This document shows positions 12,201 through 53,206 of a stretch of 64,000 nucleotides of DNA, piece by piece. Under the pieces are notes generated by a model. The model saw only the letters and a list, made by a program, of their open reading frames with translations, did no database searches and was not told the origin of the DNA. Source of the stretch: Naegleria gruberi (taxonomy: Eukaryota); the NCBI GenBank assembly GCA_000004985.1, contig GG738893.1. One strand, given 5' to 3'. Position numbers and translations under genes: made by a program. Position 1 is the stretch's first letter; each line of letters starts with the position of its first letter.

Positions 12201-14085
12201 NNNNNNNNNNNNNNNNNNNNNNNNNNNNNNNNNNNNNNNNNNNNNNNNNNNNNNNNNNNNNNNNNNNNNNNNNNNNNNNNNNNNNNNNNNNNNNNNNNNN
12301 NNNNNNNNNNNNNNNNNNNNNNNNNNNNNNNNNNNNNNNNNNNNNNNNNNNNNNNNNNNNNNNNNNNNNNNNNNNNNNNNNNNNNNNNNNNNNNNNNNNN
12401 NNNNNNNNNNNNNNNNNNNNNNNNNNNNNNNNNNNNNNNNNNNNNNNNNNNNNNNNNNNNNNNNNNNNNNNNNNNNNNNNNNNNNNNNNNNNNNNNNNNN
12501 NNNNNNNNNNNNNNNNNNNNNNNNNNNNNNNNNNNNNNNNNNNNNNNNNNNNNNNNNNNNNNNNNNNNNNNNNNNNNNNNNNNNNNNNNNNNNNNNNNNN
12601 NNNNNNNNNNNNNNNNNNNNNNNNNNNNNNNNNNNNNNNNNNNNNNNNNNNNNNNNNNNNNNNNNNNNNNNNNNNNNNNNNNNNNNNNNNNNNNNNNNNN
12701 NNNNNNNNNNNNNNNNNNNNNNNNNNNNNNNNNNNNNNNNNNNNNNNNNNNNNNNNNNNNNNNNNNNNNNNNNNNNNNNNNNNNNNNNNNNNNNNNNNNN
12801 NNNNNNNNNNNNNNNNNNNNNNNNNNNNNNNNNNNNNNNNNNNNNNNNNNNNNNNNNNNNNNNNNNNNNNNNNNNNNNNNNNNNNNNNNNNNNNNNNNNN
12901 NNNNNNNNNNNNNNNNNNNNNNNNNNNNNNNNNNNNNNNNNNNNNNNNNNNNNNNNNNNNNNNNNNNNNNNNNNNNNNNNNNNNNNNNNNNNNNNNNNNN
13001 NNNNNNNNNNNNNNNNNNNNNNNNNNNNNNNNNNNNNNNNNNNNNNNNNNNNNNNNNNNNNNNNNNNNNNNNNNNNNNNNNNNNNNNNNNNNNNNNNNNN
13101 NNNNNNNNNNNNNNNNNNNNNNNNNNNNNNNNNNNNNNNNNNNNNNNNNNNNNNNNNNNNNNNNNNNNNNNNNNNNNNNNNNNNNNNNNNNNNNNNNNNN
13201 NNNNNNNNNNNNNNNNNNNNNNNNNNNNNNNNNNNNNNNNNNNNNNNNNNNNNNNNNNNNNNNNNNNNNNNNNNNNNNNNNNNNNNNNNNNNNNNNNNNN
13301 NNNNNNNNNNNNNNNNNNNNNNNNNNNNNNNNNNNNNNNNNNNNNNNNNNNNNNNNNNNNNNNNNNNNNNNNNNNNNNNNNNNNNNNNNNNNNNNNNNNN
13401 NNNNNNNNNNNNNNNNNNNNNNNNNNNNNNNNNNNNNNNNNNNNNNNNNNNNNNNNNNNNNNNNNNNNNNNNNNNNNNNNNNNNNNNNNNNNNNNNNNNN
13501 NNNNNNNNNNNNNNNNNNNNNNNNNNNNNNNNNNNNNNNNNNNNNNNNNNNNNNNNNNNNNNNNNNNNNNNNNNNNNNNNNNNNNNNNNNNNNNNNNNNN
13601 NNNNNNNNNNNNNNNNNNNNNNNNNNNNNNNNNNNNNNNNNNNNNNNNNNNNNNNNNNNNNNNNNNNNNNNNNNNNNNNNNNNNNNNNNNNNNNNNNNNN
13701 NNNNNNNNNNNNNNNNNNNNNNNNNNNNNNNNNNNNNNNNNNNNNNNNNNNNNNNNNNNNNNNNNNNNNNNNNNNNNNNNNNNNNNNNNNNNNNNNNNNN
13801 NNNNNNNNNNNNNNNNNNNNNNNNNNNNNNNNNNNNNNNNNNNNNNNNNNNNNNNNNNNNNNNNNNNNNNNNNNNNNNNNNNNNNNNNNNNNNNNNNNNN
13901 NNNNNNNNNNNNNNNNNNNNNNNNNNNNNNNNNNNNNNNNNNNNNNNNNNNNNNNNNNNNNNNNNNNNNNNNNNNNNNNNNNNNNNNNNNNNNNNNNNNN
14001 NNNNNNNNNNNNNNNNNNNNNNNNNNNNNNNNNNNNNNNNNNNNNNNNNNNNNNNNNNNNNNNNNNNNNNNNNNNNNNNNNNNNN
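9251..14085. other. Assembly gap (4835 N), beginning about 850 bp downstream of the tRNA gene
   Basis: Run of n characters. The short ORFs flanking the gap (8819-9223, 14086-14134) are not convincing coding sequence. Confidence 1.
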
Positions 14086-18600: not shown

Positions 18601-18860
18601 NNNNNNNNNNNNNNNNNNNNNNNNNNNNNNNNNNNNNNNNNNNNNNNNNNNNNNNNNNNNNNNNNNNNNNNNNNNNNNNNNNNNNNNNNNNNNNNNNNNN
18701 NNNNNNNNNNNNNNNNNNNNNNNNNNNNNNNNNNNNNNNNNNNNNNNNNNNNNNNNNNNNNNNNNNNNNNNNNNNNNNNNNNNNNNNNNNNNNNNNNNNN
18801 NNNNNNNNNNNNNNNNNNNNNNNNNNNNNNNNNNNNNNNNNNNNNNNNNNNNNNNNNNNN
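15654..18860. other. Assembly gap (3207 N) immediately upstream of the retrotransposon 5' region
   Basis: Run of n characters. Confidence 1.
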
Positions 18861-19169: not shown

Positions 19170-19736
19170 TTGGAAAAAATTATTGAATATTATATTATTG
19201 AAAAGGGAATTAATGTTGAAGGATTATATACCAACTATTCCCATAAACAATATATTACTAGAATATCATTTGATAATGAGAAAACGTGCTCTGAACTTGC
19301 TTCAGCTCTTGATTTACAACACTATAAAACAGTAGAGCAAATCAGAAGTGAAACAAAAGAGACAACATCTCAATGCACATTCCCTATTCAATTTACTGAT
19401 AACGAGATTACAAATGGAATTGCTCGTGTTTACTCTAGAATGGATATTCAACTTGTATTGAACAATTTAAAAATATCAGATGCAACTAATCACTCTGGTA
19501 CTTCAAAATATAAATTAGTTAAATTATCACACACAGATAAGGATGAAATGGATGAATTTTGTAAGAAAAATATTTCTCTTATTGATAAGCACAAAAACCA
19601 TTTCAATTTCTATTTCAAACCTTCTATTGAGATTTTAGATCTTAAAATAGAACAGAAAAATAGATTATTTCCTTATTTACCTACTATTAATTCTACTAAT
19701 AATATTGCAACAACTAAATCAGTTGCTAAAACAACA

Positions 19737-19769
<33 letters not shown>

Positions 19770-20012
19770 AAGAATAATAATAATAATATTAATAATAATA
19801 ATAATAATGAAAATAATCTGTTAATATTACTCACCAAAGCTTTTTCAAGCCTTGTTGTAGGATTGGCAAATAATAATGTAATTCCATTAGATAATAACTT
19901 AATGGAAATTGTCAATATTACTAATAATATAAATAATGTAAATAATACTAACTCTGTAATGATAGATGATGATTTGATTTCAACATCATCTAATGAATCT
20001 ACTCAACCTTGA
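19170..20012 (+). CDS. Retrotransposon ORF1 (280 aa, Asn-rich; probably 5'-truncated or degenerate since there is no ATG before residue 90)
   Basis: ORF track. The frame is open upstream to 19014 without an ATG. The ORF ends with TGA overlapping the ORF2 start. Confidence 0.55.
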
Positions 20013-23000
20013 GTGGAACTACCACTAGTTTAAGACTTGCATGCTACAATGTTAACGGTCTATACAAGCATGCAGTCCATAAATCTGTAACTCAAGAATT
20101 GAAATCTATGTGTTTAACACATGGAGTTCATATGATGAGTATTACAGAAACACACGTTAACACTACTGAATTAGAAATTAAAGTTAGAAATTCTGGTTCA
20201 GGTTATTTATTATTTAACTCCCTTATGGGTCGATCTAAAGGCTGTAAAGGAACAGCAGTTATGCACTTTTTAAATAATCATAGAAAGCGTAACATTACCA
20301 ATAATAATTTAGTACCTGGAATCTTACAATGGACAAGATTTGAAAGCAGGGGAATTCCAATTAATTTATTTACTATTTATTTAAGTGGCAGATCAGATGA
20401 TTATGAAAATGATCAAGAAGCCATTAACAGTTTTATCAATGCTGTTTTAACATGTAAAGATGAACATATTATTTTAAGTGGGGATCTTAATATTGATACT
20501 CAAAACCCCACTACTACAAGAGAAAAGGATTGGATTTGGATTCTTGAAATGTTAAAATTGACAGAATTCAAAACACCAAATTATACATGGATTAGACGAA
20601 GTCAGGGAACTTTAATTAGATCTAGACCTGACCATATCTTTGTCTCAAAGAATATTAGAGTGGTAAAGGAAGTAATTATGACACCTTTGACCACTAATGA
20701 TCATGTCCCTTTTTATTTAGATTTAGAATTTAAATCTAATCTTACTTGGAGAACTTACTTTAGTAAGAATAAGAGGAAAAGAATGTACGAAGCAATTAAT
20801 AAGTGTAAAATTGACAATTTTCAAGAGCTGAATCAAGCAATTGAGGCTCAAATAATTAAATATGGATCCAAAGTAGATAGATTAGGAGTTGGAAGAATTT
20901 CTACAGCATTTAAAGAAGAAATTCAAGATTTAGAGGATGAAATATTATCTAAAATTAATAACCCTAATATTCCTCAATCAGAAATACAAGAACTACAAAC
21001 ACTCCTAAAAGAAACACATATTAATAATGCAAAAGAGATTAAGGAAAAACTTATAGATGAATTTAATGATAACTCTTCATCTAGAATGTATCAATTTGAT
21101 AAAATGATACACTCTAACCAAATTATGTGGAAAGACCTTAACTTTGAAGAAGAAGAAATAGTGGATTACTTTACAAACAAATTTACCTCCACTAATCAAC
21201 AACCAACATTCACACCAAGTAATTCAACTATCAAAGAAGGTCCAGATTGGAGCAATTCGATTCATATTAAAGAGCTACAAGATGCTCTCAAACGAATGAA
21301 ATCAAACACTTCTGGGCCTGATCTAATCTCACTTGATATAATTAAACATCTTACAGAAGCTAATCAAGGAATCCTCTTAGAAGAATATAATAGATGTTTA
21401 AGAGATGGTGATATTCCACAAAATTGGAAACAAGGATGGGTAAAACTCATTCCTAAAAGAGAAATTAATACCTTAAGTGATATTCGCCCAATTACTATTT
21501 TACCAATATTTTACAGAATATTATTTAATATTATAGCATTTAGATTGAGATCTTGGGCATCAACTCATATTAATGTTAGACAACAAGCATTTATTACAGA
21601 CAGAAATACTTTGAATCATGGTGTATTACTCTCTGCCTTAGCAATGAAAACAAGGAAAAGGACTTTTATTTTAGTGAATTTAGATATAGAAGGGGCGTAT
21701 GATGCAGTCGAATTACCTGTCATCAAAATGGCCCTAGACCACTGCAAATACCCTTCAGAACTTACTCAATTCATTTTAAATGCTTATGCTAACCATGAAC
21801 TTCAATTAGAAATTGATAATCATCTCTCTGATAAATTTAAGAAAACAAGAGGAATACCACAAGGCTGTCCACTGGCCCCTCTTATTTACGATTGTATTAC
21901 CCAATTAATAATTGACAAAGCAATTGATAAGTGGAAGATACCAATCAAACCAGGCAAACTATGTGCAAATGATATTGCACTCTGCTGTTTTGCTGATGAT
22001 ATGAATGTTGTATGTGACAGATATGCCAAATATAATGAGAGACTAGACAATATTCATGATTGGTTACATCAATTATTATTTAAATTGAATGCTAAGAAAT
22101 CAGTAGCAACTCTATTACCTAAAAAGAGCACAGTCTCACCTAAAATCAAAGGTACTCCAGTACCTAAACAGAAAAACCTTAGAGTACTTGGCCATTACCC
22201 TTGGGATGATACTTTGGTAACACAAGACATCCAATCCAAGATAGACAAATTCACAAAATCATTAAGATTTTTACCATTATTCAAATTACAACCAACAAAC
22301 CTTAAAATAATTATGCATGCTAAAGCAATCAGCTTATTCACCCACCTCTCAAAAATCAATATAATCCCTTTAAAGAAAGCTCAGGAAATAGATCGTGCAA
22401 TTAGAGGTGCAATCAGACGTAAATTATTAATGGACAGAGCAACTCCAACAAGTTTCTTTCACCTGCCATTAGAAGAAGGTGGATTACCATCAATTGAGGA
22501 ATTCTCTGAAAGAATGAATTTAAGAACTATGAATTTAATCGCCAATAATAAGAATAAGTTAATAAGAAAAGCTTGTGAGGAAACTAAAGATAATATTTAT
22601 GCTAAATGGTTATCTGTACTTAAAGAATATAATCTCACATTTGTGCAGAATGATACGAAATTTAGAATAGCCAAAATTAAAACAGGAAATAGTTTCGATA
22701 TCCATACAGATGGATCTAGAATTAATCAAAAGACAGGAATGGGTATTAATATTTATGATACCTCAAATAGATCAGTTCCTTGTAAAACTTTATCCCTCGA
22801 ATCAATGATCATTATTCAAATAATATAGCCGAAATATGCTCCATAATAACTTCTATTAATGTAATCCCACGAAACTCTAAAGTTACCATTCATACTGATA
22901 GTGAAGTTGCAATAGAAGTTCTCAAAGATAGATACAAAGGAGATTTTCTAACATTAAAAGAAGCCTTCTTTAGAACAATCAAAAATAGAAAAATAGAATA

Positions 23001-23667
23001 TGAAATTAAGAAAGTTGAAGCACACAAAGATAGCGAGAATATCAAGGTTGATTTAATAGCAAAGAATGCTACAACCAGAGATGATATTTTTGATATTTGT
23101 AATTTACTCAAGAATCAACACCTCCTTGTTAAGGATGGTGTTGTCATCTTCAATCATAAGAAGATGACCATAACAAGACATTTAAGTGTAAGACATAATA
23201 AGATGAATGAAAACCCTAACTTTATTCTAAACCAAAGTTGGGATTCTCTTAATGTGCAATACCTTAAAACTCGTCTTACTCCTAAAACTAAATACTTTAT
23301 ATGGAGAAATTCCATCAATGCCCATATCAATTTTGGTAAGGGTAAAAGTTTCTGTTACGATTGTGGTACAGAATCTGATTTATTCCATTACATTCATGAG
23401 TGCCCTGGCTTGGATAGTGCCAGGTATTTTTGTCAGTCAAAGATATCTGATATTCTTGAAGGGAGAGAGTGCTTACTTTCTCATTTTCAATTCAAACCAG
23501 AAAAGCATCACCATGCATTACATTTCCATCATAACGGAATCACCTCTTTCGAAGATGGATACATGCAATTCCATAAAGACATCGCTAAGAAGTGGCCAGA
23601 GATCCAAGGTGCCATTTCTAACTTCGTCGGCCGTTCCTATTCTAACTATTATATTGACTCCAAATAA
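20009..23667 (+). CDS. Retrotransposon ORF2: APE endonuclease, reverse transcriptase, RNase H and a Cys/His zinc-binding domain. One frameshift near 22800 splits it into 20009-22828 and a continuation in another frame to 23667
   Basis: The RNase H motif is interrupted: ...IHTDGSRINQKTGMGINIYD...KTLSLE sits in one frame and NDHYSNNIAEICSIITSINVIPRNSKVTIHTDSEVA... in the frame shared with ORF 23164-23667. Confidence 0.8.
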
Positions 23668-23909
23668 TTTATATAACCTATGAGAATCTGAATAGATTCG
23701 TTATTGTCGTAATAAAAGATTTTTTTACGAGCAATGGATTGGAGTTTTTACCGATTTTTTCCTGCAATGCAGGTTTTTTATAGGAGTTGTTCTACTTCAA
23801 TCTCGATTTTGTAAACAACTTTATTAACTCGGGTTCTCTTCCAATCCGTGGTGTTCCGTTTGGTTAAAACAATGTTGTGAAATTCAATCAATCTAACAAC
23901 TACAATTGT

Positions 23910-28319: not shown

Positions 28320-30964
28320 TTATATTGAATCCATGTAATCCTCTACAAAAAATTGATCAATCCTTGTATGATAATGTGATAGGATATTGACCATGGTTTC
28401 AACATTTGACACTCGGGATTGAATATAGCAAATAATATCTAGTATCTTCTTGGAGGGATAATCATCAGGATTTTCTGTCAAGTAGTCTTTGAGTTGAATC
28501 TTCTTTTCATTGAGAGTATCTGGATCGGAACTGGTAAATATTTCAAATATTGAACGATATTGTTTGTAATTGAATATTTCCTTCTCAAATTCACACATCC
28601 ACTCTAAAATAATTATTATTAATATATATTTTGTAATATTAGTTTGATGGAAAATTCATTAATACATCTTTGGGACTTGAAAACAACCTACCTTCTCCTT
28701 CTTCTTCTATTTGATTATCCACTTCCTTGATTACTTCATAGACATTTTTAATAACTTCTTCAGATGGTCCACTTGCACGAACATAACATTGGAAGAGGAA
28801 TCTATCAATTGGTCTCGAAATGAATTGATCACACAAAGTTGTTTGCTCATCAGCAACTATGTGAACACCATTATGAGAAGCCAAATAACTTAAACTTTCT
28901 GCCACTTTACAGGCATTGGAAATGATGGACAAGACCTTGTGATGTTTGGTTCCTAAATTTCCAACATATGAATCTGCATTTGTGGAAACTCCAATACCAA
29001 ATTCAATCTTTACATCAAAATCCTCTTTGAATTGCTTGTTAAAATATTCGAGACCTTTCTGCAGTTTTAAGGCCAATTCGAGAGCTACAATATTGGATTT
29101 GATTACTCTTGGCTCTACAATGACTCTAAAATCTTCAAGTGACAGAACTTGAAGATCACAATGTAATAGTCTTGTACAATCAGTCATGACACTCAAAATT
29201 TTTGGAAATGATGCAGAAATGAAGTGAGGAGTATTATACTTTAAATAGTTATGCAATCTCACATGAATAACAGAGCATTCCTTCTGATTAAGACCTGTTT
29301 GAAATGGATGGCATGCATCATTAGTTTTCTCATACTTGGCATAGCTTGGATTATGATTGATGGTTTGAGTCTTTTTTGGATTTTTCTTTGGATTGGAGCT
29401 ATAACGAATATCTTGAATGACAGATGGAGGAACGAATGACCTGATTTCTCTCAACCATCTCACTGTTAATGATAAACTTGTATAGACTTGGCTCAACTCA
29501 TCAAACATTGAGTCAGGGATAATCATACCTTCCAAATTCAAAACCTTAATTTTTTGGAATTGTTCTTGGAGGAAGGTTATTGGTCTAATAATAATCAGAG
29601 AAAGAGTAATTCCAAACAAGACTCCGATGAATGTTACCACTACAGCTACGGAAACAGACACAGCAATACTAATATGGATACTTTTCATGACATCAGACTC
29701 TACAACCACTGTGTACATATCCCATTTTACATTGTGATATTCATAGATTTGATGTCTAACAAAGTAATTTACACCCAAACTGGTAACTGTGACACTTTCA
29801 GGCAAATTTTCAATATCTCCATACGTATCTTTCAGTTTTTGCATTAGTTGACCTGCATTCCTTTCAGTAATTGCGTAAATACTAAGTCGTTCCTTTTCAT
29901 CAGGAGAGCTACAACGAACGCTTCCAGCTAAAGCAAAATCACTACCATTCTCTTTGATAATTACGTAGCCATGCTCGAAAACTTTGACTTTTTTTGAGAG
30001 GAAATTACTAAAACCAGCTAGTGGCCTCACTATACGAGCTATTCCTTTGAATAATTTCACACCCTGAGAAAATAATTCTTGATCGAAAACTTTAGCTCCG
30101 AAAGAAATTGATAAGGTTCCATTAGTGACAATGTATGGCTTACTAAATGCTCCCTCTTCTCCCATTCTTTCAGCTTCTGCCAATGGAAACCAATAATAAT
30201 CCTTAATTGATACATTATACGGTGTAAAGTCAATAGTATCATTCAACTTGAGCAAAGTTCCATTATTATCGTATGTATCTCTGAGAGATCCTATGAAAAA
30301 TGTTGTCTCAAATAATATTAATTTCAAAATAATTACCTATGAATCCTGGAGGTTGATAAGAGTAGACGATTCTTTCATCATCTTGCTTTCCAACAATCGT
30401 ATAGGAATATCTTTCTGATGGATTACCAAATGCATAACCAACACTCAATCCACTCACTTTATAGGGTGTGTAAAAGTATTTTCGAAAGACACTCGGCTCT
30501 GTTAGTCCATAATTGTAATGGTCTGCCATTATAAATCCAGTATCTTTCATATTCTTCAGAACTGAATCAATATACAATGTGATTTTATCCTGAACCAAAT
30601 CTTGAACATTCCCAGTTAGTTGATTCACTGAATTATACATTGCCACAAACACGGAAACATAAATACTACCCGAGCACACCACAATCAATAATGTCATTAA
30701 TATTATAATAAAAGCCTTTAAGGAACAAGGGCCTCGTAAATCGCTCAAATAGTATTCATCCAAGTAGAATAAATTCAGAGAGCCATCATCATTCCTTCGG
30801 TGTTCTTGTTGTTTCTGAAGCTCTTCCTTAATAATTATATCTCCAACAGAATAGGAAGAAATATTTACACATGATGGTGCATTTTCTGAGGAATTTCCCT
30901 CGCCACCTTCATTCATATCAAGAAACGGAGGTGCTAGCATATTTGTTGCATTATTCATCATCAT
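28320..30964 (-). CDS. Two-TM sensor-domain membrane protein with a C-terminal divergent cyclase-like domain (ACG-like architecture), 836 aa. Exons are 30337-30964, 28692-30290 and 28320-28603. Introns are 30291-30336 (46 nt) and 28604-28691 (88 nt)
   Basis: Architecture: N-terminal cytoplasmic segment, TM1 (AFIIILMTLLIVVCSGSIYVSVFVAMY), an extracellular domain of about 330 aa, TM2 (IAVSVSVAVVVTFIGVLFGITLSLIII), then a domain resembling class III cyclases (KIEFGIGVSTNADSYVGNLG...LSIISNACKVAESL; ...LSLEDFRVIV). Both splice junctions were checked for frame: PGFIG|SLRDTY and EEGE|EWMCEFEK. A first-metal Asp looks substituted (His) at the position tried, but the alignment is tentative and done by eye. 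Confidence 0.6.
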
Positions 30965-31527
30965 TATTTTGCTGTGATGATGAATGTTAAGGCAATTTTT
31001 CTTTGTGAATATTTTGCCCGAGATGCACCTTAAAAAGTGGCGATGCTATTCAATTCGGGAAAGAGATATAAAAGTATACTTCTCTGTGAACCACCCCATC
31101 TTTGTCTCGTCTTAACAAAATGTATTTGCCTTGAAGATTCGATACTTCAATATCCCAAAAATTGGTCAATGAAATGGAATGTTTGAATCATCATGTAATG
31201 AGAAGAATTTTGTTGATTGCCAGTGTTTGTTATTAAATAACTTTATTACTTGTTAACAAAAGATTCGACATGAAATTCCTTAATTTTCGTATGATAATTG
31301 GAGACTATTGTTAAGAGAAATTCTTCATTACATGATGATCACTTAAATGCTCAATAAAGTCTAATTGCTTTCTAGAGAATATATCATTCGATCGTTCTGA
31401 TAAAAATTCTTCAAATTGATGTTTGATTCTTCCATTCAAAAACTATTAACTTTCGAGTGTAAAAAAAGTTAAGTTTTTAATTTTTTCTTTATTTGTTTTT
31501 GAAATTAAATAAACAAATTAAAACAAA

Positions 31528-32142
31528 TTAAAACAAGGAAGCAACTGCAATTAATCCAACAATCATCAAAACAACCAATGAAACAATTGATTGAGAATGT
31601 CTCATTGAATTTCCAGCATTAGTTGTGCTATTACTTGACAAGAGACATTTGTTAATTTTTCCAGAAGCACAACTATTCAAAGTAATTGGTGCAGAGGTGG
31701 AAACAGTTTGACAATTCTCATCAGAATAAGTAACAACCTTTTCACAATTGACATATTGTCCAGATTTAGCACTAGGTCCAAAGAGAATTCCAGATTTAAT
31801 ACAGACATTAGTTTTGTAAACGTCATATCTATTGAGAGTGGTTGAATCACATGTGGTTGTGTTAGAATAGGCATAGATGGAAATTTCTCCACTCTTCAAG
31901 GTTGGATTTTGTGGATAGGAAGTTGGACATTCGAAACTTTGGGAAAGTACAGTTGGCTCATTGCTGTACGGAGTGCAGGAAGTTACATTGCAACCAGCTG
32001 CGTTATCACGAATGGTCATGAGGAAGGAGGTTCCAGAGCATGTAGTTCCTTGGTACCAGTAGGTTGCTCTCAAGGCACTTTCGGCTCTGTATACGAAACA
32101 AGCAAGGAGAAGAGTGGCAATGAGGAAAATGATTGATTTCAT
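31528..32142 (-). CDS. Small Cys-rich secreted or GPI-anchored protein (204 aa from the ATG at 32142)
   Basis: Signal peptide MKSIIFLIATLLLACFVYRAES; about 14 Cys; a Ser/Thr/Asn-rich stalk; a C-terminal hydrophobic tail IVSLVVLMIVGLIAVASLF. No recognised family. Confidence 0.5.
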   Translation of the reverse strand: MKSIIFLIATLLLACFVYRAESALRATYWYQGTTCSGTSFLMTIRDNAAGCNVTSCTPYSNEPTVLSQSFECPTSYPQNPTLKSGEISIYAYSNTTTCDSTTLNRYDVYKTNVCIKSGILFGPSAKSGQYVNCEKVVTYSDENCQTVSTSAPITLNSCASGKINKCLLSSNSTTNAGNSMRHSQSIVSLVVLMIVGLIAVASLF

Positions 32143-32585
32143 GTTGTGTTGTGTGATTGTTTTTTTCAGGTTGAAAGCAATCAAGTAATTTCGCAGCAAT
32201 TTATCAACAAGTGACTTTCGAATAACAATTTTCAAGGAGTAACGATGGGTAGATTTGTGCCTCTTTCTAAAAAAGTTTAATAGTGCGTGCAATATGTGAG
32301 CTCGTTACTCCTTGAATTTGGTGCGCTGACTTAGGAATGCAAGACGCATTTCTGCAGTTTCAAGAGAAGGGTACCTTTCGAATAGAATCCCTCCATATAA
32401 TTGATCAAATTGATTGAATACAATGAACATCTTCCTAAATCCCGAACATGTTTGATGAATCATCAAGGATTTTGAATATTACAGAATTTTGGCTAAATTC
32501 CAACTACAGTTTTTCACATATTTTGCTTTAAACTAAACTTACAAAACTTATCACGTTTGAAACAACTCAGTTTCCAATAAAAAAA

Positions 32586-33671
32586 ATGGGTCAACTCCTT
32601 GTTTCTTCATCGATAGCTCCTTCTCCTCAATTCTTCACTTCCACTTCCGATCAAAAAATATTTCCAAATGATGTTTGCTTGGAAATTTTAAAATTTTTAG
32701 AAAATGGAAATTTCATTATTCGGAATTGTTCTCTAATTTCTAAACAATTTTACAATTTGATTGGAGAATATTTGAAATTTGCAATTGTATTTAAAAAGGA
32801 GATTAATTTGAAGAGTTTGGCAAAGAGTCAATATTTGAATCGAATTGTATCTTTGAAAACAGTCAATTCCTTTGATGGATCGATAATTGATAATGTGGAA
32901 TTATGTGAAATTTTGCAAGGAATGAAAGATTTGAAAGAAGTTTGGATTTATAAACAATTGAAGGGAGTTAAAGGAATTAAAAAGATTGGTAGTCTGAAAC
33001 AATTGACGATATTGGATGTTAGTTATAATGATATAGGATATGGTGGTGTGAAATGGTTGACTCAATTGAGTCAATTGACTGAATTGAGAATTGGAAATAA
33101 TTCAATTTTTGATGATGATATTAAAATGATTTCTGAAATGAAACAATTGACTAAACTTGATCTTTCTAATTGTAGAATCATGGATGGAGTTCAATATTTG
33201 AGTAAATTGGAAAATTTGACATCTTTGAGACTTTGTGGAAATCGATTAACCGATGAGAGAGTTGAATCGATTAGTAATTTGAAACAACTAACTGAACTTT
33301 ATATTGGAGAAAATCAGTTAGGAACAGAAGGAGCTAAATCCATTGGAAATATGACTCAATTGACACGTCTCAATATCCAACAGAATAGAATATCCCAAGG
33401 TGTTAAATATTTAGAAAAATTGGATCGATTGACTGATCTCAATATTAGTAAGAACAAAATTGGTGATACTGGTGTAATAATAATTAGTGAAATGAACCAA
33501 TTGACTAAACTAACAATTAGGGATAATAAGATATCAGAAGAAGGTGCCAAAACTCTAGGCCTGCTACAAAAATTGACCTACCTCGATATTAGTGATAATT
33601 CAGTCAGCAACGTAACGGCCAACTCCATGCAAAAGAACATGAAAAGCCTTAAATACAAAATTCTGTTCTAA
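32586..33671 (+). CDS. F-box-like N-terminus plus leucine-rich repeat (ribonuclease-inhibitor-like LRR) protein, 361 aa
   Basis: ATG at 32586. N-terminal VCLEILKFL...ISKQFYNLI (F-box-like), followed by about 12 repeats of the form LT.L.I..N.I...G... Confidence 0.75.
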   Translation: MGQLLVSSSIAPSPQFFTSTSDQKIFPNDVCLEILKFLENGNFIIRNCSLISKQFYNLIGEYLKFAIVFKKEINLKSLAKSQYLNRIVSLKTVNSFDGSIIDNVELCEILQGMKDLKEVWIYKQLKGVKGIKKIGSLKQLTILDVSYNDIGYGGVKWLTQLSQLTELRIGNNSIFDDDIKMISEMKQLTKLDLSNCRIMDGVQYLSKLENLTSLRLCGNRLTDERVESISNLKQLTELYIGENQLGTEGAKSIGNMTQLTRLNIQQNRISQGVKYLEKLDRLTDLNISKNKIGDTGVIIISEMNQLTKLTIRDNKISEEGAKTLGLLQKLTYLDISDNSVSNVTANSMQKNMKSLKYKILF

Positions 33672-33714
33672 CATTATTTCAGTTGTTTTTGTTGAAATAT
33701 TAAAATGTTAAAAA

Positions 33715-33832
33715 GACTACAGCACCACAGGTTCCCAAGTTGTCTCCAACCTCAGTACTGATGTGGCTCGACGATGCTTAACTTCTCAAATCGGACGGGA
33801 TGAGGTGCATTCATCGTGATATGGCCGTAGCC
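33715..33832 (-). rRNA. 5S ribosomal RNA gene, 118 nt, with a TTTTT Pol III terminator immediately 3'
   Basis: Minus-strand sequence GGCTACGGCCATATCACGATGAATGCACCTCATCCCGTCCGATTTGAGAAGTTAAGCATCGTCGAGCCACATCAGTACTGAGGTTGGAGACAACTTGGGAACCTGTGGTGCTGTAGTC. It carries the universal 5S blocks ACGGCCATA, CCCGTCCGAT.TGAGAAGTTAAGC, AGTACT..GGTTGGAGACAAC, TGGGAA and GGTGCTGTAG. Helix I 5'/3' complementarity is present. The GGTTGGAGACAAC block matches the Dictyostelium-type 5S. Confidence 0.9.
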
Positions 33833-34201
33833 ATTCATTAACTAAGGTTTTTCAAAATGTTCAAAAAATTGCGAGTTAATTCATTGCAAAAATGTTTGAC
33901 GGCCATGAAGGAATGAAAAATAGGGATGGCTCGCCAACTTTTATCTTTCCATCATAATGAAAAATAAATTCCAATTTCATGATAATCCACCAATAAAAAT
34001 TACTATTATTACTATAAAGATGATGTTGAGATGATGATGCGAAAGTTTGGTGCTTTCATGATGTGAAACCACTCGGAAAATCAGCAATGGTCACAAAGTA
34101 TCATTTGTTGAATATTTTTTCAATATTGTGTTTAATAAATTAATTTATTATTATTAAAAATTACAAATGTTGCCTAACACAACAACATTCATCACACCAT
34201 C

Positions 34202-35125
34202 ATGACAATAACCATTTTCAACAAGCCAATCAACACAAATTCACTCATCAAGAATCTGATCTTCCTCCTCATCCGAGCACTTTTCAATGGCCTTCAATGG
34301 GTAGGCTGGAGTTTGGCCGTTCTAATTTCTCAACAAATTATTCTTTCAGTACTCACAGGATGGCAAGAGCTACGAAATATTATAGTGCCCATTGCAATTG
34401 CCATCAATGAAATTGTATGCTCACAATGTTTTGGTAGAATTTTGTGTAGGCTTGAAATTAAATTTAATTTAATATTTAATATTAGTGATGATGATGAAGA
34501 GGAAAGGAACATGAATCGGAATACTAATAATAATAATGATAATAATAATAATAATATTAATGAAAGTGGTAATACTAGTAATAATCAAACAAATAGGAAT
34601 GAAAATGTGGAAGGAAATACATCAAAGGCTATCACTGCTGTCCATAAGAGCATGATTGGATGTGTGGCTTCGGGAATTGTTTTTGATTTTGTGGATAGAG
34701 CTATAGGAAATATCTATTCAGAATCGGGAATGTATGAAATTACCCTACTGATGAGATGTATTTGTGTGTTTGTGGCTGATAGATTTGTGTTTCATATTGT
34801 AATGGAGATTTTGGATAGGATTGAAGAACAACAATGGACCTTTTCTAATGAAATTTCGAATATTGAGGGTGCCTCATGTGCAGGAATGTCAGCAATTGCT
34901 TATAATTTAGCAACAGAGTTGGGAATTTACATTTGCAAAGAGCACATTGGTACTGATAATGATTGGTTTATTGGATTGTTTTGCATTCCATTTATTGCAG
35001 TTGCTACAGGAATAGGTCTAATAATTGGCGTATTGGAGGGAAAACTCTGGCAGATTTTGGATAGTGCTATGTATTCAAAAGTCCGTAACATAATGACGAG
35101 CAAGAGACATAACATTACTAATTAA
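34202..35125 (+). CDS. Hypothetical membrane protein with an Asn-rich insert, 307 aa
   Basis: ATG-initiated ORF with several hydrophobic segments and a central poly-N/D low-complexity region. No recognised domain. Confidence 0.45.
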   Translation: MTITIFNKPINTNSLIKNLIFLLIRALFNGLQWVGWSLAVLISQQIILSVLTGWQELRNIIVPIAIAINEIVCSQCFGRILCRLEIKFNLIFNISDDDEEERNMNRNTNNNNDNNNNNINESGNTSNNQTNRNENVEGNTSKAITAVHKSMIGCVASGIVFDFVDRAIGNIYSESGMYEITLLMRCICVFVADRFVFHIVMEILDRIEEQQWTFSNEISNIEGASCAGMSAIAYNLATELGIYICKEHIGTDNDWFIGLFCIPFIAVATGIGLIIGVLEGKLWQILDSAMYSKVRNIMTSKRHNITN

Positions 35126-35348
35126 TTTCTCCACTACAAATTATCAAAGCAAATAAAGCAATTCAATTTTGGAAGTCCCAACAATTCTTAAACGTAAATT
35201 GATAGCTTTACTGGTAGGCGGGGAGATACCACAACCTCTCAAATAACATCAAACACGAGATATTTACAAATGTGCATCACGTAACTGACACAGTTTGTAA
35301 TCATGCGAGCAATTACCTCAAATCTTGTCAATCCAAACATTTAAAAAA

Positions 35349-38300
35349 ATGAATATGAGCGAAGTAGGTGGCTCTGTAATAGCAGAGTCTGCTATTGAGT
35401 CTCAAATTAATAGAAATTCAGTTGTCAAGCAGGCCAACAACAAATTTACCTCAATGGTGCTATCTCTTCAGGTCAATACACCAAGAATTGGATGGAAATG
35501 GTACTTGATTTCATTGGCATGTATGATTATACAGTTGTGGAGCACCATTTTGCTTCCAACCTTGAATCAAACTTGGGGTTCGACTTCTAAACTGATTTTT
35601 GACATTCTGAATGTGCCTAATACATTCTTTGTACATTATTTAACTCATGACCAAGCAATAATAATTGCATACATTTGCGTTGGTTTTGTATTCCTTTGCA
35701 TAGCCATTGCATGTGCTTGTATTTGGTCCATCACAAATGCCACTAAGCACATCACCAAATTCAAATATCTATTATTTGTATTCGCCTCAATAGCTCAAAC
35801 GTTTTCCATATTTCTCCTTTTCAATTTTGTTGGTTTCTATGATTGCAGTATTACCAATATCAATGAAGATACATTAGAGAGGACGCTTTCTAGATTTCCC
35901 TCCAATTCATGTTTTAGTGATACAATTATTATTGCACTTTGCATAGCTGGTTCATGTGCTTTATTTGTATTGGTAATTCTCTCTCGATTGATTTCTCATG
36001 ATTTGCATCCTTTGAGCAATACTCCATTTGTTTCAATGACTCCAAAATTGATGGTCATGATGGATTTCGTTAATTTGTTTACAATGATTTTGTTATTTGT
36101 CATACCTCAACCTTATCTTTTCGTGACAAATGCCATTAATATGATCGCTTCATTAGCCATGATGATTGTTCATGGTAAATCTTGTCATTTTTTCAAACGA
36201 ATGGACAATTCATTATTTATGGGAGTATTGGCAGCAAGATTTGGAACTAGTTTGGGAAGTTTTGTAAATTCCTTAATTACCACACCCCTAATCAATATGC
36301 CAAATTCTGAGTCTTTCTCCCTTTATATTGGTTTTTCTACTACTATTGGTTTGGCTCTGATGTTTGCACTTATTGGATTTGTTGCTATTGAAATTTATAC
36401 AAGAATTGTTGTTAAATTAATTAGAGACATGACATTGACTGATTTCCTAGGTTTAATTCATTCTAATCAACCTCTAAATATTCACAAATCAAAGAAAGCA
36501 ATTATGAACTATATGGAAACCAAAGCGCAAATCTACATTCAAACATTCAAGTTGAAAAATACTCTACATCAATTGACAATGTTTTTCAGATTTGCCAACA
36601 AGTCAACTTATGAAATTTATAGTGGAGTTCAAGGTGATGATGGGTTGGATATTTATTTGAGTGATAAAGATCTCTCTCTAATTTATTTGAAAACTCTGTA
36701 CAATAGAAAATCAAGAGAAATTGACTTGTTGTACAATTTATCAACTCTAATGGCTTACGACCATTTTGGAGACGACGAATGTCATACACCGAAAGCTTTG
36801 CAAGTAATGAACAGAGTGTGCAAAAAATCAAGTTTTTGGAATCACTTGGATTATCATTATAGAGCTAAGGAAATTCAACAGTATGCAACTGACACTGGTA
36901 CAGCAGATGCAAGTCAAGAGAATGATGCAAAAATGTTACTACTCAAGGAGAATCAAGATAAGTTGTTATGCTTACACAGAGACTTCTGGAAAGAAATGAT
37001 CAATGAACCAGTCAAGCTGTCAAGTGTTCAGAAAATTTGTGAAAAGATATCCGATATTTCAGAAGAATGCGAAGAAACATTTATGGAAGCACTTTCAGAT
37101 CGTAAAAACAAAGCCTATCTAAGAATGTATGCAACCTATGTTGAATTATTCCATTTTGATAAGGATCTAGCTCAAGCAATTCACATGGAAGCTAATCAAC
37201 TCGACCAAGAAATGAAAGTTACTCAAAGCATTAACAAAATCAAAAAGAAGCAAGTAGTACCTAGTGCTTCTAGATCTTCTTTAAAATCCCTGTTCAGATC
37301 AAGAACCAGAATTAGAGAATCAATGACTGACCAAATGAGCGACGCAGGATCAGACGTTTCAAATCAAATTCCAAATGGGTTTACTGAACATTTTGACCAA
37401 TTTGATGATAGTGCAAGTGTTGCAGGTGATAATAATGCTCCTGAAGCTGCGGAACAAAAGAAGGATTACTTATTTAGAAATGCTTTGAAAGCTAGACGTC
37501 CAGAAGGTGTCAAGTATTTATTGTATTTCTTATTTTTGTTTTGTTGCGTTGCCATTATGACAGGTGGTTTGGTCATGTCAATAATCAATAGTTCCAAAAT
37601 TAAGCAAAATATCATTAATTTGAAAGATGTCTGTATTCCACAAACAGCTCCTCTTTCAATTATTAGAAATGTAAGAAATATGCAAAATTGGATTTATGTA
37701 TTCTTTGTGAAAAAGTATGGATGGCCTTCGAGCTTTGGAACCACAGCCACTGTTTCAAAAACCGTAAGTATCTCTTAAAGAATTCTGAATATTAAATGAA
37801 ATAGGAGTTCATGTCATACTTTAAGGAAAGGCTAGATAAAGACAAAGATGGTCTGTTAAGTTTGCTTGTATTGGGACAGGATATTCAATTTGATTTTGAA
37901 ACTTATACTCAATATGGTAAATCAATGTACCAAACCTACATTCCTAGCTCTTCTACGACTGGTACAAACTTAACATTTAATACCAAAGTATATATAGGAG
38001 AACCAGAATTGAGAAATGTCTCAGTTGTTGAAATTACCAACTCTATCATCAAATATCTCGATCTTATCAAAGACGATGATTTTCCACAAGCAGAATTAGA
38101 AAAGTTGCAAGAAATGGACCTAAACTCTGCTGCTGCCCAACAAGTTATTGATTCTATTCTTTCAAAACCGTTCATGTTTCCAATTTCCAATTACAATTTC
38201 ATGTATTTATGGTTGAACAAGTTTGGAATTACACACATCTATGAAGATTTTTGTAATGCCTACGTTGAAAGAAGCAAGAAATCTACTGTTACATTGATGG

Positions 38301-40715
38301 CTGGTTCAGAATACTATTTTTATGCAACTATTGGTTTGATGATCGTAATTGGATTGCTTCTTATCGCTTATATTCAATACGATTTATTATTCTTTAAAAG
38401 ATTAGTCAAATTAATTGAAAAGGAGCTGAACAAGGATGGTATTGGAAAAATTTATCAACAATTGAATAAGAAAACTTCTATGGAAGCTTCCTTAGATTCT
38501 AATATTGTTAGCAAATCACTTCATGCAAATGCTAGTTTAGTAATTGCAATTGCATTGCTTGCTGTGTTTATTCCATTATGTATTGGAATGTTATACTTGG
38601 AAACATACAAGAACGCAAAGAGTGCTCTATTTACTTTCACCAATGTTGGATTATCTTCAAATGTAATTGAACATTTACAGTTTGCTTCATTTTATTTGGG
38701 AGAAATTCTTACACTTTTTGGTGTAGCTCACTTATCCAATAACGATGCCAGATTGTTCAATAGCAAATTGTCAAGTGGAAATTTTGAACAAATTTACAAA
38801 TCATTGAGATATGAAACTGATTTTACTGCAGCAAATTAGTAAGTAGTTTTGGAATTTTAACAATTTACTAGAATCAATGTTCAGCCAAGAATTGATATAC
38901 GGAGATGTTACTAAACCTGATGATGATCCAGTAATTGGTTTGTATCCATCTTTGGATAAGCTACTCAAACAAGGAGTTGATAATTGTACTCTTTATTTAG
39001 AACAGCATAATTTAACTCTCACACTCAAAACGAAAATTCAGTACTGTACAGGAATTGATAAAGTAATGACTGATTTCCTAACTACCATTACACAGACCAG
39101 TGAGAATACTCGAGATTTCTATACAAAACAAAATGCTGTATTTGCTGCTAATGGAACAATTTTAGATCCAACTGAAATATTTATGGAACATTACAAGTTA
39201 AATGTAATGTCTCATCCTCTGAATGACAAACTATTGATATTCATGAATGAATTTGTTAGAGTCTCTTCAGAACTATCACTAATATTACTTTTAATATTTA
39301 CTTGTTTAGGATTTTTACTCACAGCAGTCATTGGAAGACTCATATTGGCAATGATCAAGAACAAATCAAATCAACTCTACCACACCAGAATGCTAATGAA
39401 CTATATTCCAGTAGAAATGTTAGATAGAAATGAAAAACTCAAAAATGTTGCATTATTTAACTCTTTCCCTAATGCACTAGTTGAAAAGTTGAATAGAAAA
39501 GGAAAAGAGGGTTCATCTGAAAGTGGATTTAATGGCGTTGCGAATATTATCAATTCTTCAGTTGATGGATCTGCTTTGTTAAATGAAAGTGGAGATATTG
39601 AGATTTTCAACCCAGCAGCACATCGAATGTTTAATTCAACTTCAGTCGATGTATTGGGTACAAAGCTTTGTTCTTTATTTGAGGAATCGATTCAGGAAAC
39701 TATTAGAAAGACATTTGAATCCATAATAGAGCAATCTAAGAAATCTTATAATTCTGGAGGAAATGGACTCGCTCAGGAAACATTAGAAGCTGAATGTATG
39801 AGAAGAAATCAAACTAAATTCCCTGCCAAGATTAGTCTATTCACTACTCATCTTTCAGATCGTGGAACTATTGTTGTTTGTACCATTAAGGATGTGACCT
39901 CAGAGAAGAAACAACAAGCTCTCCTTGCGGACGAAAAGAAACACTCTGATAATCTACTCAAAAACATTCTTCCAGAAAATGTCGCTTCAAGACTAAAGAA
40001 GGGAGAAACATTCATTGCTGAAAAACTTTCTGATATTACATGTTTCTTCTCAGATATGGTTGGTTTCACAAAAATCAGCTCAACCATGCAAGCTACTGAA
40101 TTGGTGAAAATGTTAAATGCAGTAGTTAATGGATTTGACAATTTGACAGAGCTTTATGACCTGGAAAAGATTAAAACCATTGGAGATGCTTACTTTTGTG
40201 TAGGTGGTCTTCATGGTTCTTCAGATCACCCAGAAAGAATGTTAAAATTTGCCATGTCAACCTTCCAAGTCATTAACGATTTTAATTCTGGAAAATTTGG
40301 AGTCATTCTAGAAAATGATAATCAACTCGATATCAGAATTGGTATCAACACAGGTTCTGCTCTTGCAGGTGTGATTGGAACCAAGAAATTTGCCTACGAT
40401 TTGTGGGGTGATACCATCAATACTGCCTCAAGAATGGAATCAACTGGTCAACCAGGAAGAGTTCAAATAAGCAGATCAACCTACGAAAGAGTTTATGATA
40501 TGGGATTGGAATTTGAGGAGAAACGAGTGGAAGTAAAAGGAAAGGGAATTATGCAAAGTTATTTATTGAGTGCACGTCATCACATAAGCACCAAGGTTGA
40601 CTTGATTATTCCAATCGAACAGAAAACACTCCAAGATTATGAAATTGACAATGAACCTTTAGAACAATTAAAACTAGATAATAACACATCGTCAAGTCAA
40701 AACTCAATGGAATAA
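35349..40715 (+). CDS. Large polytopic membrane receptor with a PAS-like domain and a C-terminal class III nucleotidyl (adenylyl/guanylyl) cyclase catalytic domain, about 1760 aa. Exons are 35349-37763, (37805 or 37826)-38838 and 38885-40715
   Basis: Intron 1 has donor GTAAGT at 37764 and an acceptor at 37804 (41-nt intron) or 37825 (62-nt intron); both preserve the frame. Intron 2 is 38839-38884 (46 nt): TA|GTAAGT...TTCAG|C restores the TAC codon. The N-terminus has many TM helices, and further TM helices occur in exons 2 and 3. The PAS-like stretch is GDIEIFNPAAHRMFNS.... The cyclase motifs are FFSDMVGFT, KTIGDAYFCVGG and GINTGSALAGVIGTKKFAYDLWGDTINTASRMESTG. Confidence 0.75.
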
Positions 40716-42394: not shown

Positions 42395-43365
42395 ATGAAA
42401 CTCTTCCTCGCTGTTTTTTGCTTGTTGAGCGTTGTCGCTTCTGCCTATTGTTCCTTGATTGCCAGTGGTGCTAGTTTGCGTTCAACCACTGCTTTGAATA
42501 TCAGATCAGGCCCATGTACATCAAATGGTATTGTTACTAGTGTTGGTGCTGGTACTACTTTGAAGTTTACTGGTAGCGTCCAATCTGGATGTGGTTATAC
42601 ATGGTATGGTGTTGAAGTTAATGGTAAAAGAGGACATGCTGCTTCTAATTTCTTGACTGAAGTTAATAATGGAGGTGGTGGTGGTTCTAACACTGGTGCT
42701 TCTATCAGTGTTGATGCCTTGAGAAGAATTATGCCAAACTTGTCATCATCAAAGGCTAACCAATATATTGGATATTTGAACAGTGCTTTGGCTGCTGGTA
42801 ATATTAATACTTGTTGCAGAAAGAGTGCTTTCCTTGCTCAACTTGCTCACGAATCTGGTGATTTGAATTGGTTTGTTGAATTTGCTTCAGGTGCTGCTTA
42901 TGAAGGTAGAAAGGATTTGGGTAACATTTATCCTGGTGATGGTGTTAGAGTAAGTTATCTTTGACATTTTGACTTTTGACACTTTTTGACATTTTCAATT
43001 ATTATTAATTTATTAATTATATTATAGTACAAGGGTAGAGGTCCAATTCAAATTACTGGTCGTGCTAATTATCGTGCTGCTGGTCAAGCCCTCGGAATTG
43101 ATTTGGAAAATAATCCAACCAGAGCTGCTGATCCAGATGTTGGATTCCGTACTGGTAAGTAGTTAGTTGAAAACTGTTAATAATGTTTATACTAATCAAC
43201 ACAATAGCTGTTTGGTTCTGGAACTCAAGAAGTTTGAATCAATATGCTGATCAATGTAACCAATCTGGTTTTGATATCACTACCAGAAGAATTAACGGTG
43301 GTTACAATGGTAAGGCTGACAGAGATGCTCACTGGACCAGAGGTAAGAGCGTTTTGGGATGTTAA
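42395..43365 (+). CDS. Secreted bacterial-type SH3b domain plus glycoside hydrolase family 19 (chitinase/lysozyme-like) protein. Exons are 42395-42949, 43028-43154 and 43208-43365
   Basis: Signal peptide MKLFLAVFCLLSVVASAYC. SH3b-like ALNIRSGPCTSNGIVTSVGAGTTLKF...WYGVEVNGKRGHAASNFL, then a Gly-rich linker. GH19 blocks: FLAQLAHESGDLNWFVE, YKGRGPIQITGRANY, AVWFWN and ITTRRINGGYNGKADRDAHWTRGKSVLGC. Two GTAAGT...AG introns (78 nt and 53 nt) have verified phases. Intron 1 contains (TTTTGACA)x4. Confidence 0.8.
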
Positions 43366-45926: not shown

Positions 45927-46376
45927 ATGTCAAACACCAACCAAACAAAAAGTAATAGGTCGAAAGCCCAAAGTAACTGGAACCAAGCCATGCTAGAGAG
46001 CTCGATAAATTCCAGCCGGCTGATAATATGGAAAGTGGCCAAAGATAAAACTATCAAATCCACACAGGAGAGAAAATCCATCAAGAAACAAAAGACGAAA
46101 GTGACTGTCGATGGAATTGTGAGGAATCGAATGATTTCTGATAGAGAGATTATGCAAGTTTTACATTTACCACAAATGCAAGCATGTAAAATATTGAATT
46201 GTAGTTTATCCACTTTGAAAAGAAGATTTTACGAATTGAAAGATGGTTTTGGATTAGACAGATGGCCCAATAATTTGCTTGTTGCCAGACATTTGCCAAT
46301 TTTCAAAAAGATTTATCCAATGTCTTTGGACTTTATTCTGAATCATGACGACGAAACATCTACCACTTCTCAATAA
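45927..46376 (+). CDS. Small RWP-RK-like domain protein, copy 1 (149 aa)
   Basis: C-terminal ISDREIMQVLHLPQMQACKILNCSLSTLKRRFYELKDGFGLDRWPNN...HLPIFKKIYPMSLDFILN. It aligns to the RWP-RK core (AAK.LGV..TTLKR.CR..GI.RWP) with the RK dipeptide replaced. Confidence 0.75.
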   Translation: MSNTNQTKSNRSKAQSNWNQAMLESSINSSRLIIWKVAKDKTIKSTQERKSIKKQKTKVTVDGIVRNRMISDREIMQVLHLPQMQACKILNCSLSTLKRRFYELKDGFGLDRWPNNLLVARHLPIFKKIYPMSLDFILNHDDETSTTSQ

Positions 46377-50312: not shown

Positions 50313-50789
50313 TTAGTCTTCGTTGAGAATGAATTGAAGGCTCATTGGATAAAGTTTGTTAAATATTGGCAAGTGACGTATTTCAAAAAAGTATTGTGGC
50401 CATCTCTCTAATCCAAATCCATCCTTCAATTCGTAAAATCTTCGTTTCAGAGTAGATAAACTACAATCTAATTGTTTACATGCTTGAATTTGGGACAAGT
50501 GCAATACCTGTAACATTTCCTTCTCAGAAATTATTCTATTTCGTCTTGGTTTTGAAATTTTAGTTTCAACAAAATGTGAAGAACCATTAGAGGATATCTT
50601 TCTCCAACATGTAGTCATGAATTGAGCAGAACCAGAGCCATTAGTATTTGTCTTTCTTGTATCAACTTGAAAGGATGAAGAATTCAATTTCTTGTTTTTG
50701 TCTGAAGATGACCCAGAAGATGAACTTGACAAGTCAGAACTCTTGAAATTTGCCGTGCTAGTTGACTGACATGGGGTGGTTGAATGCAT
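50313..50789 (-). CDS. Small RWP-RK-like domain protein, copy 2 (158 aa)
   Basis: ISEKEMLQVLHLSQIQACKQLDCSLSTLKRRFYELKDGFGLERWPQYFFEIRHLPIFNKLYPMSLQFILNED. The N-terminus is Ser-rich. Confidence 0.75.
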   Translation of the reverse strand: MHSTTPCQSTSTANFKSSDLSSSSSGSSSDKNKKLNSSSFQVDTRKTNTNGSGSAQFMTTCWRKISSNGSSHFVETKISKPRRNRIISEKEMLQVLHLSQIQACKQLDCSLSTLKRRFYELKDGFGLERWPQYFFEIRHLPIFNKLYPMSLQFILNED

Positions 50790-52573: not shown

Positions 52574-53206
52574 CTATTCCTCATCACTGTTGAGAATGAA
52601 TTGTAAATTCATTGGATAAATCTTTTTGAAAATTGGCAAGTGACGAATTTCAAAGAAATATTGAGGCCATCTTTCCAATCCAAAACCATCCTTCAATTCA
52701 TAGAATCTTCTCTTGAGTGTGGAAAGACTGCAATTAAGTTGTTTGCATGCCTTTTGTTGTGATAAATGCAAAACTCCAAGAATTTCCTTTTCAGAGATGA
52801 CTCTCTTCTTTTCCACTGAATTGAATGAATTCGTTTCCACAATATAATTAGCAAAAGTTGATGATGTGCATCTCCATTTGGTGATGGTAGGTGTTGTATT
52901 ATTAGATGAACCAACAGTAGGTAAGTTTCTATTACTGACATGTTGCCAAACATTTGCACTTAGATTCGATGCAGAGCTGCTGCTCTTAGGAGATCCACTG
53001 CTAACACTGCTCATACATGCATTATTGCTTCTAACACATTGTTGTGAATGAGAAGGATATTGAAATGTCTGATCTACCACATGCATGCCTTTCTGAACTA
53101 TCACATGTTTAGATATGCTCATTGCTGGCTGTTGTTCCAGCACAATGGTCAGCTTGTTTCCTGACATTTTCTTACTCTTTCCAATCTTGTTATTATTGCT
53201 ATTCAT
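52574..53206 (-). CDS. Small RWP-RK-like domain protein, copy 3 (210 aa)
   Basis: VISEKEILGVLHLSQQKACKQLNCSLSTLKRRFYELKDGFGLERWPQYFFEIRHLPIFKKIYPMNLQFILNSDEE. ATG at 53206. Confidence 0.75.
   Translation of the reverse strand: MNSNNNKIGKSKKMSGNKLTIVLEQQPAMSISKHVIVQKGMHVVDQTFQYPSHSQQCVRSNNACMSSVSSGSPKSSSSASNLSANVWQHVSNRNLPTVGSSNNTTPTITKWRCTSSTFANYIVETNSFNSVEKKRVISEKEILGVLHLSQQKACKQLNCSLSTLKRRFYELKDGFGLERWPQYFFEIRHLPIFKKIYPMNLQFILNSDEE

Follow-up and report, generated by a model that had tools for sequence, protein, structure and literature searches.

The stretch analyzed here (the window) comprises 64,000 nucleotides (nt) of contig GG738893.1 from Naegleria gruberi (assembly GCA_000004985.1), AT-rich eukaryotic DNA with ∼33% GC and three long runs of N at 2008-7109, 9251-14085, and 15654-18860. 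It carries two signaling genes, one at 28320-30964 on the minus strand (G1) and one at 35349-40715 on the plus strand (G2), which lie 4.4 kb apart and are divergently transcribed (Table 1). Three unrelated open reading frames (ORFs) stand between them, encoding a Cys-rich membrane or secreted protein, a leucine-rich repeat protein, and a small membrane protein. A preliminary description of this DNA had proposed that the two products could form a previously undescribed receptor-cyclase module. We favor instead, at a probability of about 0.72, a reading in which both genes are of class III nucleotide cyclase descent, act independently, and are adjacent by chance.

Table 1. Parts of G1, G2, and the third, G2-like locus (positions in the window; aa, amino acids; TM, transmembrane segment)
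Feature	Position	Strand	Basis
G1 gene, 836 aa, NAEGRDRAFT_71765	28320-30964	-	Splice junctions read directly; spliced translation
G1 exons (stop in last)	30964-30337, 30290-28692, 28603-28320	-	Junctions read directly
G1 introns, GT-AG	30336-30291 (46 nt), 28691-28604 (88 nt)	-	Junctions read directly
G1 predicted TM1, aa 85-103	30656-30712	-	Hydropathy scan
G1 predicted extracellular sensor domain, aa 104-425, split by intron 1, double-Cache-like in model	29644-30655	-	
G1 predicted TM2, aa 426-444	29587-29643	-	Hydropathy scan
G1 putative HAMP-like segment, aa 445-497, RPITFLQEQFQKIKVLNLEG...FDELSQVYTSLSLTVRWL	29428-29586	-	Motif read by eye; helix-connector-helix in model
G1 degenerate class III cyclase homology domain, aa 549-742	28693-29274	-	
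G1 C-terminal helical tail, aa 743-836, conserved EW.xE.E motif	28323-28603	-	Family alignment; helices in model
G2 gene, 1759 aa, ∼12 predicted TM	35349-40715	+	Junctions read directly; spliced translation; hydropathy
G2 exons	35349-37763, 37805-38838, 38885-40715	+	Junctions read directly
G2 introns, GT-AG	37764-37804 (41 nt), 38839-38884 (46 nt)	+	Junctions read directly
G2 TmcB-type TPR domain (PF25474, TPR_TmcB)	36918-37217	+	Pfam E=7.8e-11, 42.4 bits (cutoff 27)
G2 PAS domain	39543-39899	+	PAS_9 E=2e-13, 50.9 bits (cutoff 27); PAS E=2.2e-5; TIGR00229 E=7e-5
G2 class III catalytic domain	40017-40571	+	PF00211 E=6.5e-53, 179.5 bits (cutoff 21.9), profile 3-182 of 183
Decayed G2-type remnant	61977-62831	-	tblastn; six-frame translation
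Remnant piece, G2 aa 986-1028	62831-62685	-	
Remnant piece, G2 aa 1058-1101, in-frame stop	62598-62467	-	
Remnant piece, G2 aa 1568-1592	62461-62387	-	
Remnant piece, G2 aa 1602-1744	62369-61977	-	

The spliced G1 protein is identical at every letter to XP_002673078.1/EFC40334.1 (UniProt D2VS02), an N. gruberi "predicted protein," and its translation bears out the 836 residues and the order TM1, sensor, TM2, and C-terminal domain given in the preliminary description. Three introns had been expected in each gene; the junctions give two in each. Only three relatives were returned by a word-indexed search (two from Naegleria lovaniensis and one from Naegleria fowleri, 29 to 39% identity), and Pfam searches with G1 and these relatives at E≤10 gave no match to Guanylate_cyc (PF00211), CHASE (PF03924), dCache, or HAMP. 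NCBIfam gave no significant match for the sensor, HAMP-like, or cyclase-like parts of G1 and likewise recognized nothing in the relatives, and the C-terminal tail of G1 had no match in Pfam or the PDB.

The two hydrophobic segments of G1 enclose ∼322 amino acids. In a low-confidence model, the fold matches of the G1-type sensor are dCache domains, which suggests that the predicted extracellular domain is double-Cache-like. The ACG-like architecture proposed earlier thus holds for the general layout of transmembrane segment, sensor, transmembrane segment, and cyclase-type domain but not for the sensor, no match to CHASE having been found in any of the four family members. The segment after TM2 may be HAMP-like, as judged from its motif and the modeled helices; its NCBIfam matches to the TM2-HAMP regions of a methyl-accepting chemotaxis protein, PmrB, and AdeS are weak and nonsignificant (E of 0.008 to 0.4). 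A low-complexity insert (aa 498-548, 29275-29427, minus strand) parts a conserved transducer-like motif, SFVPPSV, from the cyclase-like domain. This insert is poorly conserved and variable, with ∼45 amino acids in G1 and up to ∼90 in its relatives; the spacing before the catalytic domain in active cyclases such as G2 is only ∼20 amino acids. Upstream of the G1 domain, SFVPPSVIQDI resembles the LPENVASRL element that precedes the G2 domain. The variable insert may uncouple the signal path from helix to domain.

Although the C-terminal domain of G1 fails to match PF00211, searches with the profile of its four-member family do find class III cyclases. Against all PDB sequences, the top match was the Cya2 guanylate cyclase (2w01, E=5.8e-4), followed by a phytochrome-cyclase fusion (6fht, E=2.3e-3), both aligned in the canonical register. 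The same register was obtained when the C-terminal region of the family was compared by hhalign with 25 true cyclase domains (E=1.8e-4, 131 columns). AlphaFold models were obtained for the full-length N. lovaniensis homologue and for the stretch of G1 that exon 2 encodes. The modeled first half of the G1 domain superimposes on CyaB, CyaC, Cya2, and VC1 at 2.1 to 2.6 Å over ∼105 columns, and the top structural matches to it are cyclases nearly throughout. Several lines, each modest, therefore agree in supporting a divergent class III cyclase homology domain.

In this domain, substitutions affect five of the six catalytic positions, on which three alignments and the four-member family alignment agree. 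The first metal-binding Asp is Arg554 in G1, with Arg in three members of the family and Cys in the fourth (P0004). At the second, Glu595 is followed by Asp596, an acidic pair kept in all four members, and this is the only catalytic position whose character G1 retains. The substrate-specifying Lys/Glu and Asp/Cys positions are occupied by Val591 and Ser664, the transition-state Asn by Lys671 (Lys or His across the family), and the transition-state Arg by Ser675 (Ser, Gln, or Lys). The suspicion that G1 has lost a metal-binding residue and is a pseudo-cyclase is thus supported. In class III cyclases, each active site spans a dimer interface, with the Asp pair contributed by one chain and the Lys/Asp and Asn/Arg residues by the other. 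Because G1 lacks both residue sets, a G1 homodimer would be inactive, and pairing with an active partner would not yield a complete site; G1 is therefore predicted to be unable to make cyclic AMP (cAMP) or cyclic GMP (cGMP).

The loss of catalytic residues has not been accompanied by decay of the gene. Compared with an N. gruberi-like metagenomic contig that is 99.1% identical at the DNA level, G1 shows 10 synonymous and 3 nonsynonymous differences and no coding indels, with four indels in the upstream noncoding stretch. The ratio of nonsynonymous to synonymous polymorphism (pN/pS) is 0.08 (binomial P against neutrality, 2.7e-5). Within the dead domain, numerous positions do not vary among species, GxSxxxSxVGNxG, DExT, and PxxR being among them. 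Because G1 is under purifying selection, we take it to be a working pseudo-cyclase receptor and not a dying gene. It would be a bacterial-type receptor composed of TM1, a double-Cache-like sensor, TM2, a HAMP-like segment, the cyclase homology domain, and a helical tail. Since the gene is conserved and constrained, its dead domain most likely has a noncatalytic role, as an output or binding platform that is dimeric and under the control of a ligand. It could bind a nucleotide or a partner, possibly via the conserved C-terminal tail.

G2 agrees closely with what was first described, a polytopic PAS-cyclase of ∼1,760 residues with an intact catalytic domain. The motifs quoted for it are present (FFSDMVGFT at 40044-40070, KTIGDAYF at 40173-40196, and GDTINTASRMES at 40407-40442), as are all six canonical residues, namely, the metal-binding D1540 and D1584, the transition-state N1662 and R1666, and the specificity pair K1580/D1655, which is of the adenylate type and points to cAMP as the probable product. 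The flavin-binding NCRFLQ motif was not seen in the PAS domain. From this composition, G2 is predicted to be a homodimeric membrane adenylate cyclase. Its N-terminal polytopic region would hold two large extracellular loops and, on the cytosolic side, a TmcB-type TPR domain and would be followed in the cytosol by the PAS domain, a coiled-coil or transducer helix, and the single complete catalytic domain. Two chains would then form two symmetric ATP sites, and the PAS and membrane modules presumably set activity via the helix that precedes the catalytic domain.

The public gene model for G2 needs correction. G2 is 99% identical to the N. gruberi "predicted protein" P0005, a model of 1,061 amino acids that begins at G2 residue 271 and skips residues ∼726 to 1121 (a block of ∼395 amino acids). 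N. fowleri FDP41_006627 (1,827 amino acids) is colinear with G2 from end to end (42% identity, 1,817 columns, 5% gaps), and because this alignment crosses both splice junctions and the skipped region, we consider the public model truncated and the length of ∼1,759 amino acids right. A 307-amino-acid ORF (34202-35125, plus strand) terminates 224 nt before G2 begins; it has hydrophobic stretches and a low-complexity stretch rich in Asn, and it matches no family. It was considered as an N-terminal exon of G2 and ruled out, as the alignment with the N. fowleri homologue already pairs G2 residue 1 with residue 21.

A HMMER search of 1.84 billion representative sequences with G2 exon 1 found 77 relatives, many of them 1,400 to 1,830 amino acids long. 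All those looked up belong to Heterolobosea (N. fowleri, N. lovaniensis, N. gruberi, Willaertia magna, and Acrasis kona), and several are already labeled as cyclase-domain proteins. Among the long relatives (n=34), TPR_TmcB was found in 31, PAS_9 in 26, and Guanylate_cyc in 24. The family came to light only in the exhaustive HMMER search; a word-indexed search with the N-terminal 1,357 amino acids returned just the N. gruberi protein itself. By these sequence comparisons, G2 is an ordinary paralogue within a family that is lineage specific and has so far been seen in Heterolobosea alone. Outside that group, the best matches to its catalytic domain are cyanobacterial response-regulator cyclases, at 45 to 52% identity, which is high for a eukaryote-bacterium pair. 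The TmcB-type TPR region also has a relative in the N. gruberi protein "FM179" (P0197, the name being that of its source). Among the proteins of the Chlamydomonas cilia methylome is one named "Tiny macrocysts protein B-related" (PMC11244166), and TmcB-type proteins may be linked to cilia.

The third cyclase-domain paralogue reported at 61.9 to 62.8 kb is indeed G2-like, but it is a fragmentary remnant and not merely a degenerate domain. Its four pieces are spread over three frames, and the reading frame shifts between 62387 and 62369. By tblastn, nothing at this locus corresponds to G2 residues 1102 to 1567, which include the PAS domain and the first metal-binding Asp, and the catalytic domain is represented by its 3' half alone, as a 150-amino-acid ORF. 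A spliced functional gene can be ruled out here, since the frame changes fall within 0 to 20 nt, too short for introns, and one piece contains a stop.

The pairing of G1 with G2 was not found around related genes. No cyclase- or G2-like sequence was detected by tblastn within 10 kb on either side of the closest N. lovaniensis homologue of G1, nor in the ∼10 kb downstream of the closest N. fowleri homologue, the only side read, this gene being near a contig end. The neighbors of these homologues include IFT20, Med7, LSM, and ABC transporter genes. Conversely, no G1-like sequence lies within 10 kb of the closest N. fowleri homologue of G2. Cyclase genes number at least 81 in Naegleria (PMC9928731), and because of this number several chance pairs of cyclase genes are expected per genome, so that a neighboring pair is unremarkable; we estimate that a second cyclase-type gene would fall within ∼10 kb of a given one by chance a few percent of the time.

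Several observations weigh against the reading that we prefer. The sequence evidence for cyclase homology in G1 is marginal and comes with no Pfam match: a custom hidden Markov model of the cyclase domain scored 2.5 bits on G1 and 2.5 to 11 bits across single family members, the hhalign probability against the 25-cyclase alignment was just 48%, and against the single-sequence G2 cyclase domain hhalign found no match (probability, 1.6%). Both AlphaFold models are of low confidence, with a mean predicted local distance difference test (pLDDT) score of 48.8. Within the cyclase-like domain of G1, only the first 111 residues reach a pLDDT of 58 to 77, the model of the second half is not confident, and the full-length model is that of the N. 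lovaniensis homologue, 39% identical, not of G1 itself. The acidic Glu595-Asp596 pair may permit some binding of metal or nucleotide. Finally, the G1 homologues of other species lie in a different neighborhood and may be paralogues and not positional orthologues, which weakens the synteny test. One could accordingly suppose that the G1 domain has another palm-like β-α-β fold, such as a GGDEF-like one, or is unrelated, its cyclase matches being artefacts of low-confidence models; given the common register of the profile alignments and the near-uniform structural matches, we consider this quite unlikely. That G1 is still an active cyclase working through noncanonical residues could draw on the acidic pair at the second metal position, but the other five canonical positions have changed to different chemistry in every one of the four members, and the idea is scarcely credible.

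The remaining alternatives give G1 a cyclase partner. In the module of the preliminary description, the G1 domain would pair with the G2 catalytic domain, and the G1 sensor would control cAMP synthesis. The short distance between the genes and the class III-type domains in both proteins are in its favor, and heterodimers in which one site is degenerate are known among mammalian adenylate cyclases and from soluble guanylate cyclase. A G1:G2 dimer would nevertheless be without a complete active site, because G1 has neither the metal-binding set nor the substrate and transition-state set, while G2, with all six residues present, needs no partner. The poorly conserved insert of G1, unlike the short spacing in G2, the intervening ORFs, the divergent transcription, the absence of the pairing around the homologues in N. 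lovaniensis and N. fowleri, and the chance neighbors expected from the size of the Naegleria cyclase repertoire (PMC9928731) also speak against the module, which is not supported and which we regard as very improbable. Alternatively, G1 could be a ligand-controlled dominant-negative regulator that titrates active cyclase monomers, of any paralogue and not G2 in particular, into dead heterodimers. The fold and the dimer-forming core appear to be kept, the gene is under purifying selection, and potential partners are many (PMC9928731). Yet the identity of the G1 domain to that of G2 is <20%, which makes compatible interfaces doubtful, and the second half of the domain lacks a confident model; on balance, such a role is unlikely. 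Independent action of the two genes, with adjacency by chance, remains the reading that we prefer.

Elsewhere in the window, a LINE-like (long interspersed nuclear element) retrotransposon without long terminal repeats occupies 19170-23700 on the plus strand, beside the N runs, which are assembly gaps. Its ORF at 20009-22828 encodes endonuclease (Exo_endo_phos_2) and reverse transcriptase (RVT_1) domains, and this stretch is probably repeat rich and poorly assembled. Three small ORFs within 7 kb (45927-46376, plus strand; 50313-50789 and 52574-53206, minus strand) contain an RWP-RK domain with E values of ∼1e-6 to 1e-7, near the Pfam cutoff, and may represent a local cluster of paralogous transcription factors. 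The ORF at 42395-42964 (plus strand) has a bacterial-type SH3_3 domain (E=4.3e-8) and is possibly of bacterial origin.

Bacterial Cache/HAMP-linked class III adenylate cyclases, such as Mycobacterium tuberculosis Rv2435c, have the order of parts predicted for G1. One "bacterial-type" Cache adenylate cyclase has been reported in Naegleria (PMC4822843) and shares with G1 the predicted order of transmembrane segment, double-Cache-like sensor, transmembrane segment, HAMP-like linker, and cyclase domain. Unlike these enzymes, G1 has sensor and HAMP-like segments too divergent for the Pfam models, lacks five of the six catalytic residues, and carries a variable insert and a conserved helical tail. 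Noncatalytic class III-like domains (the Pseudomonas aeruginosa "Class III adenylyl cyclase-like ATP-binding protein," PDB 6yii, and, in mammalian adenylate cyclases and in soluble guanylate cyclase, the second site, which is degenerate) belong to soluble regulators or are paired with an active half, whereas G1 is a predicted transmembrane receptor in which neither half of the active site is kept. A search of the literature on inactive cyclase homology domains gave nothing useful. Dictyostelium ACG is, like G1, a single polypeptide of similar size with a sensor between two transmembrane segments and one cyclase-type domain. ACG has a CHASE sensor and an active cyclase; G1 has no CHASE match, a sensor that models as dCache, a putative HAMP-like segment, and a degenerate cyclase domain.

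Heterolobosean TmcB-like/PAS/cyclase proteins (N. fowleri FDP41_006627 and FDP41_009091, N. lovaniensis C9374_003576, and an Acrasis kona "adenylate cyclase") share the length class and domain order of G2, which does not differ from them in kind, being one more paralogue. The TPR_TmcB domain relates it to Dictyostelium TmcB and TmcC ("tiny macrocysts"), a likeness read from the TPR domain alone. We know of no cyclase domain in TmcB itself, whereas G2 fuses the TmcB-type module to PAS and cyclase domains.

Nothing fundamentally new is required to explain this locus. To call it previously undescribed was an overstatement, as both proteins are already in public databases and the architecture of G2 recurs in dozens of heterolobosean proteins. 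What is left of interest is the small Naegleria family of pseudo-cyclase receptors, the family of TmcB-PAS-cyclase fusions, and the corrected G2 gene model. A role in cAMP signaling during Dictyostelium sexual development has been described for the tmcB family (PMC8516963), and we found no discussion of the TmcB-PAS-cyclase fusion in the searchable literature. By recurring across Heterolobosea, this fusion would tie the TmcB family physically to the synthesis of cAMP, and it is suggestive of a connection to the cAMP role of TmcB.

G1 represents a small family, so far confined to Naegleria, of predicted transmembrane receptors with a conserved yet dead cyclase domain, and the function of pseudo-cyclase domains could conveniently be studied in this natural example. 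We propose tentatively, as a rather unlikely extension, that G1 and the few proteins related to it in Naegleria form a eukaryotic family of pseudo-cyclase receptors gated by ligands, in which a bacterial-type Cache-HAMP sensor drives a dead domain that binds nucleotides or draws monomers of the numerous active cyclases of Naegleria into heterodimers that are inactive. If this is true, pseudo-cyclase receptors would provide Naegleria with an extracellularly controlled brake on cAMP synthesis.

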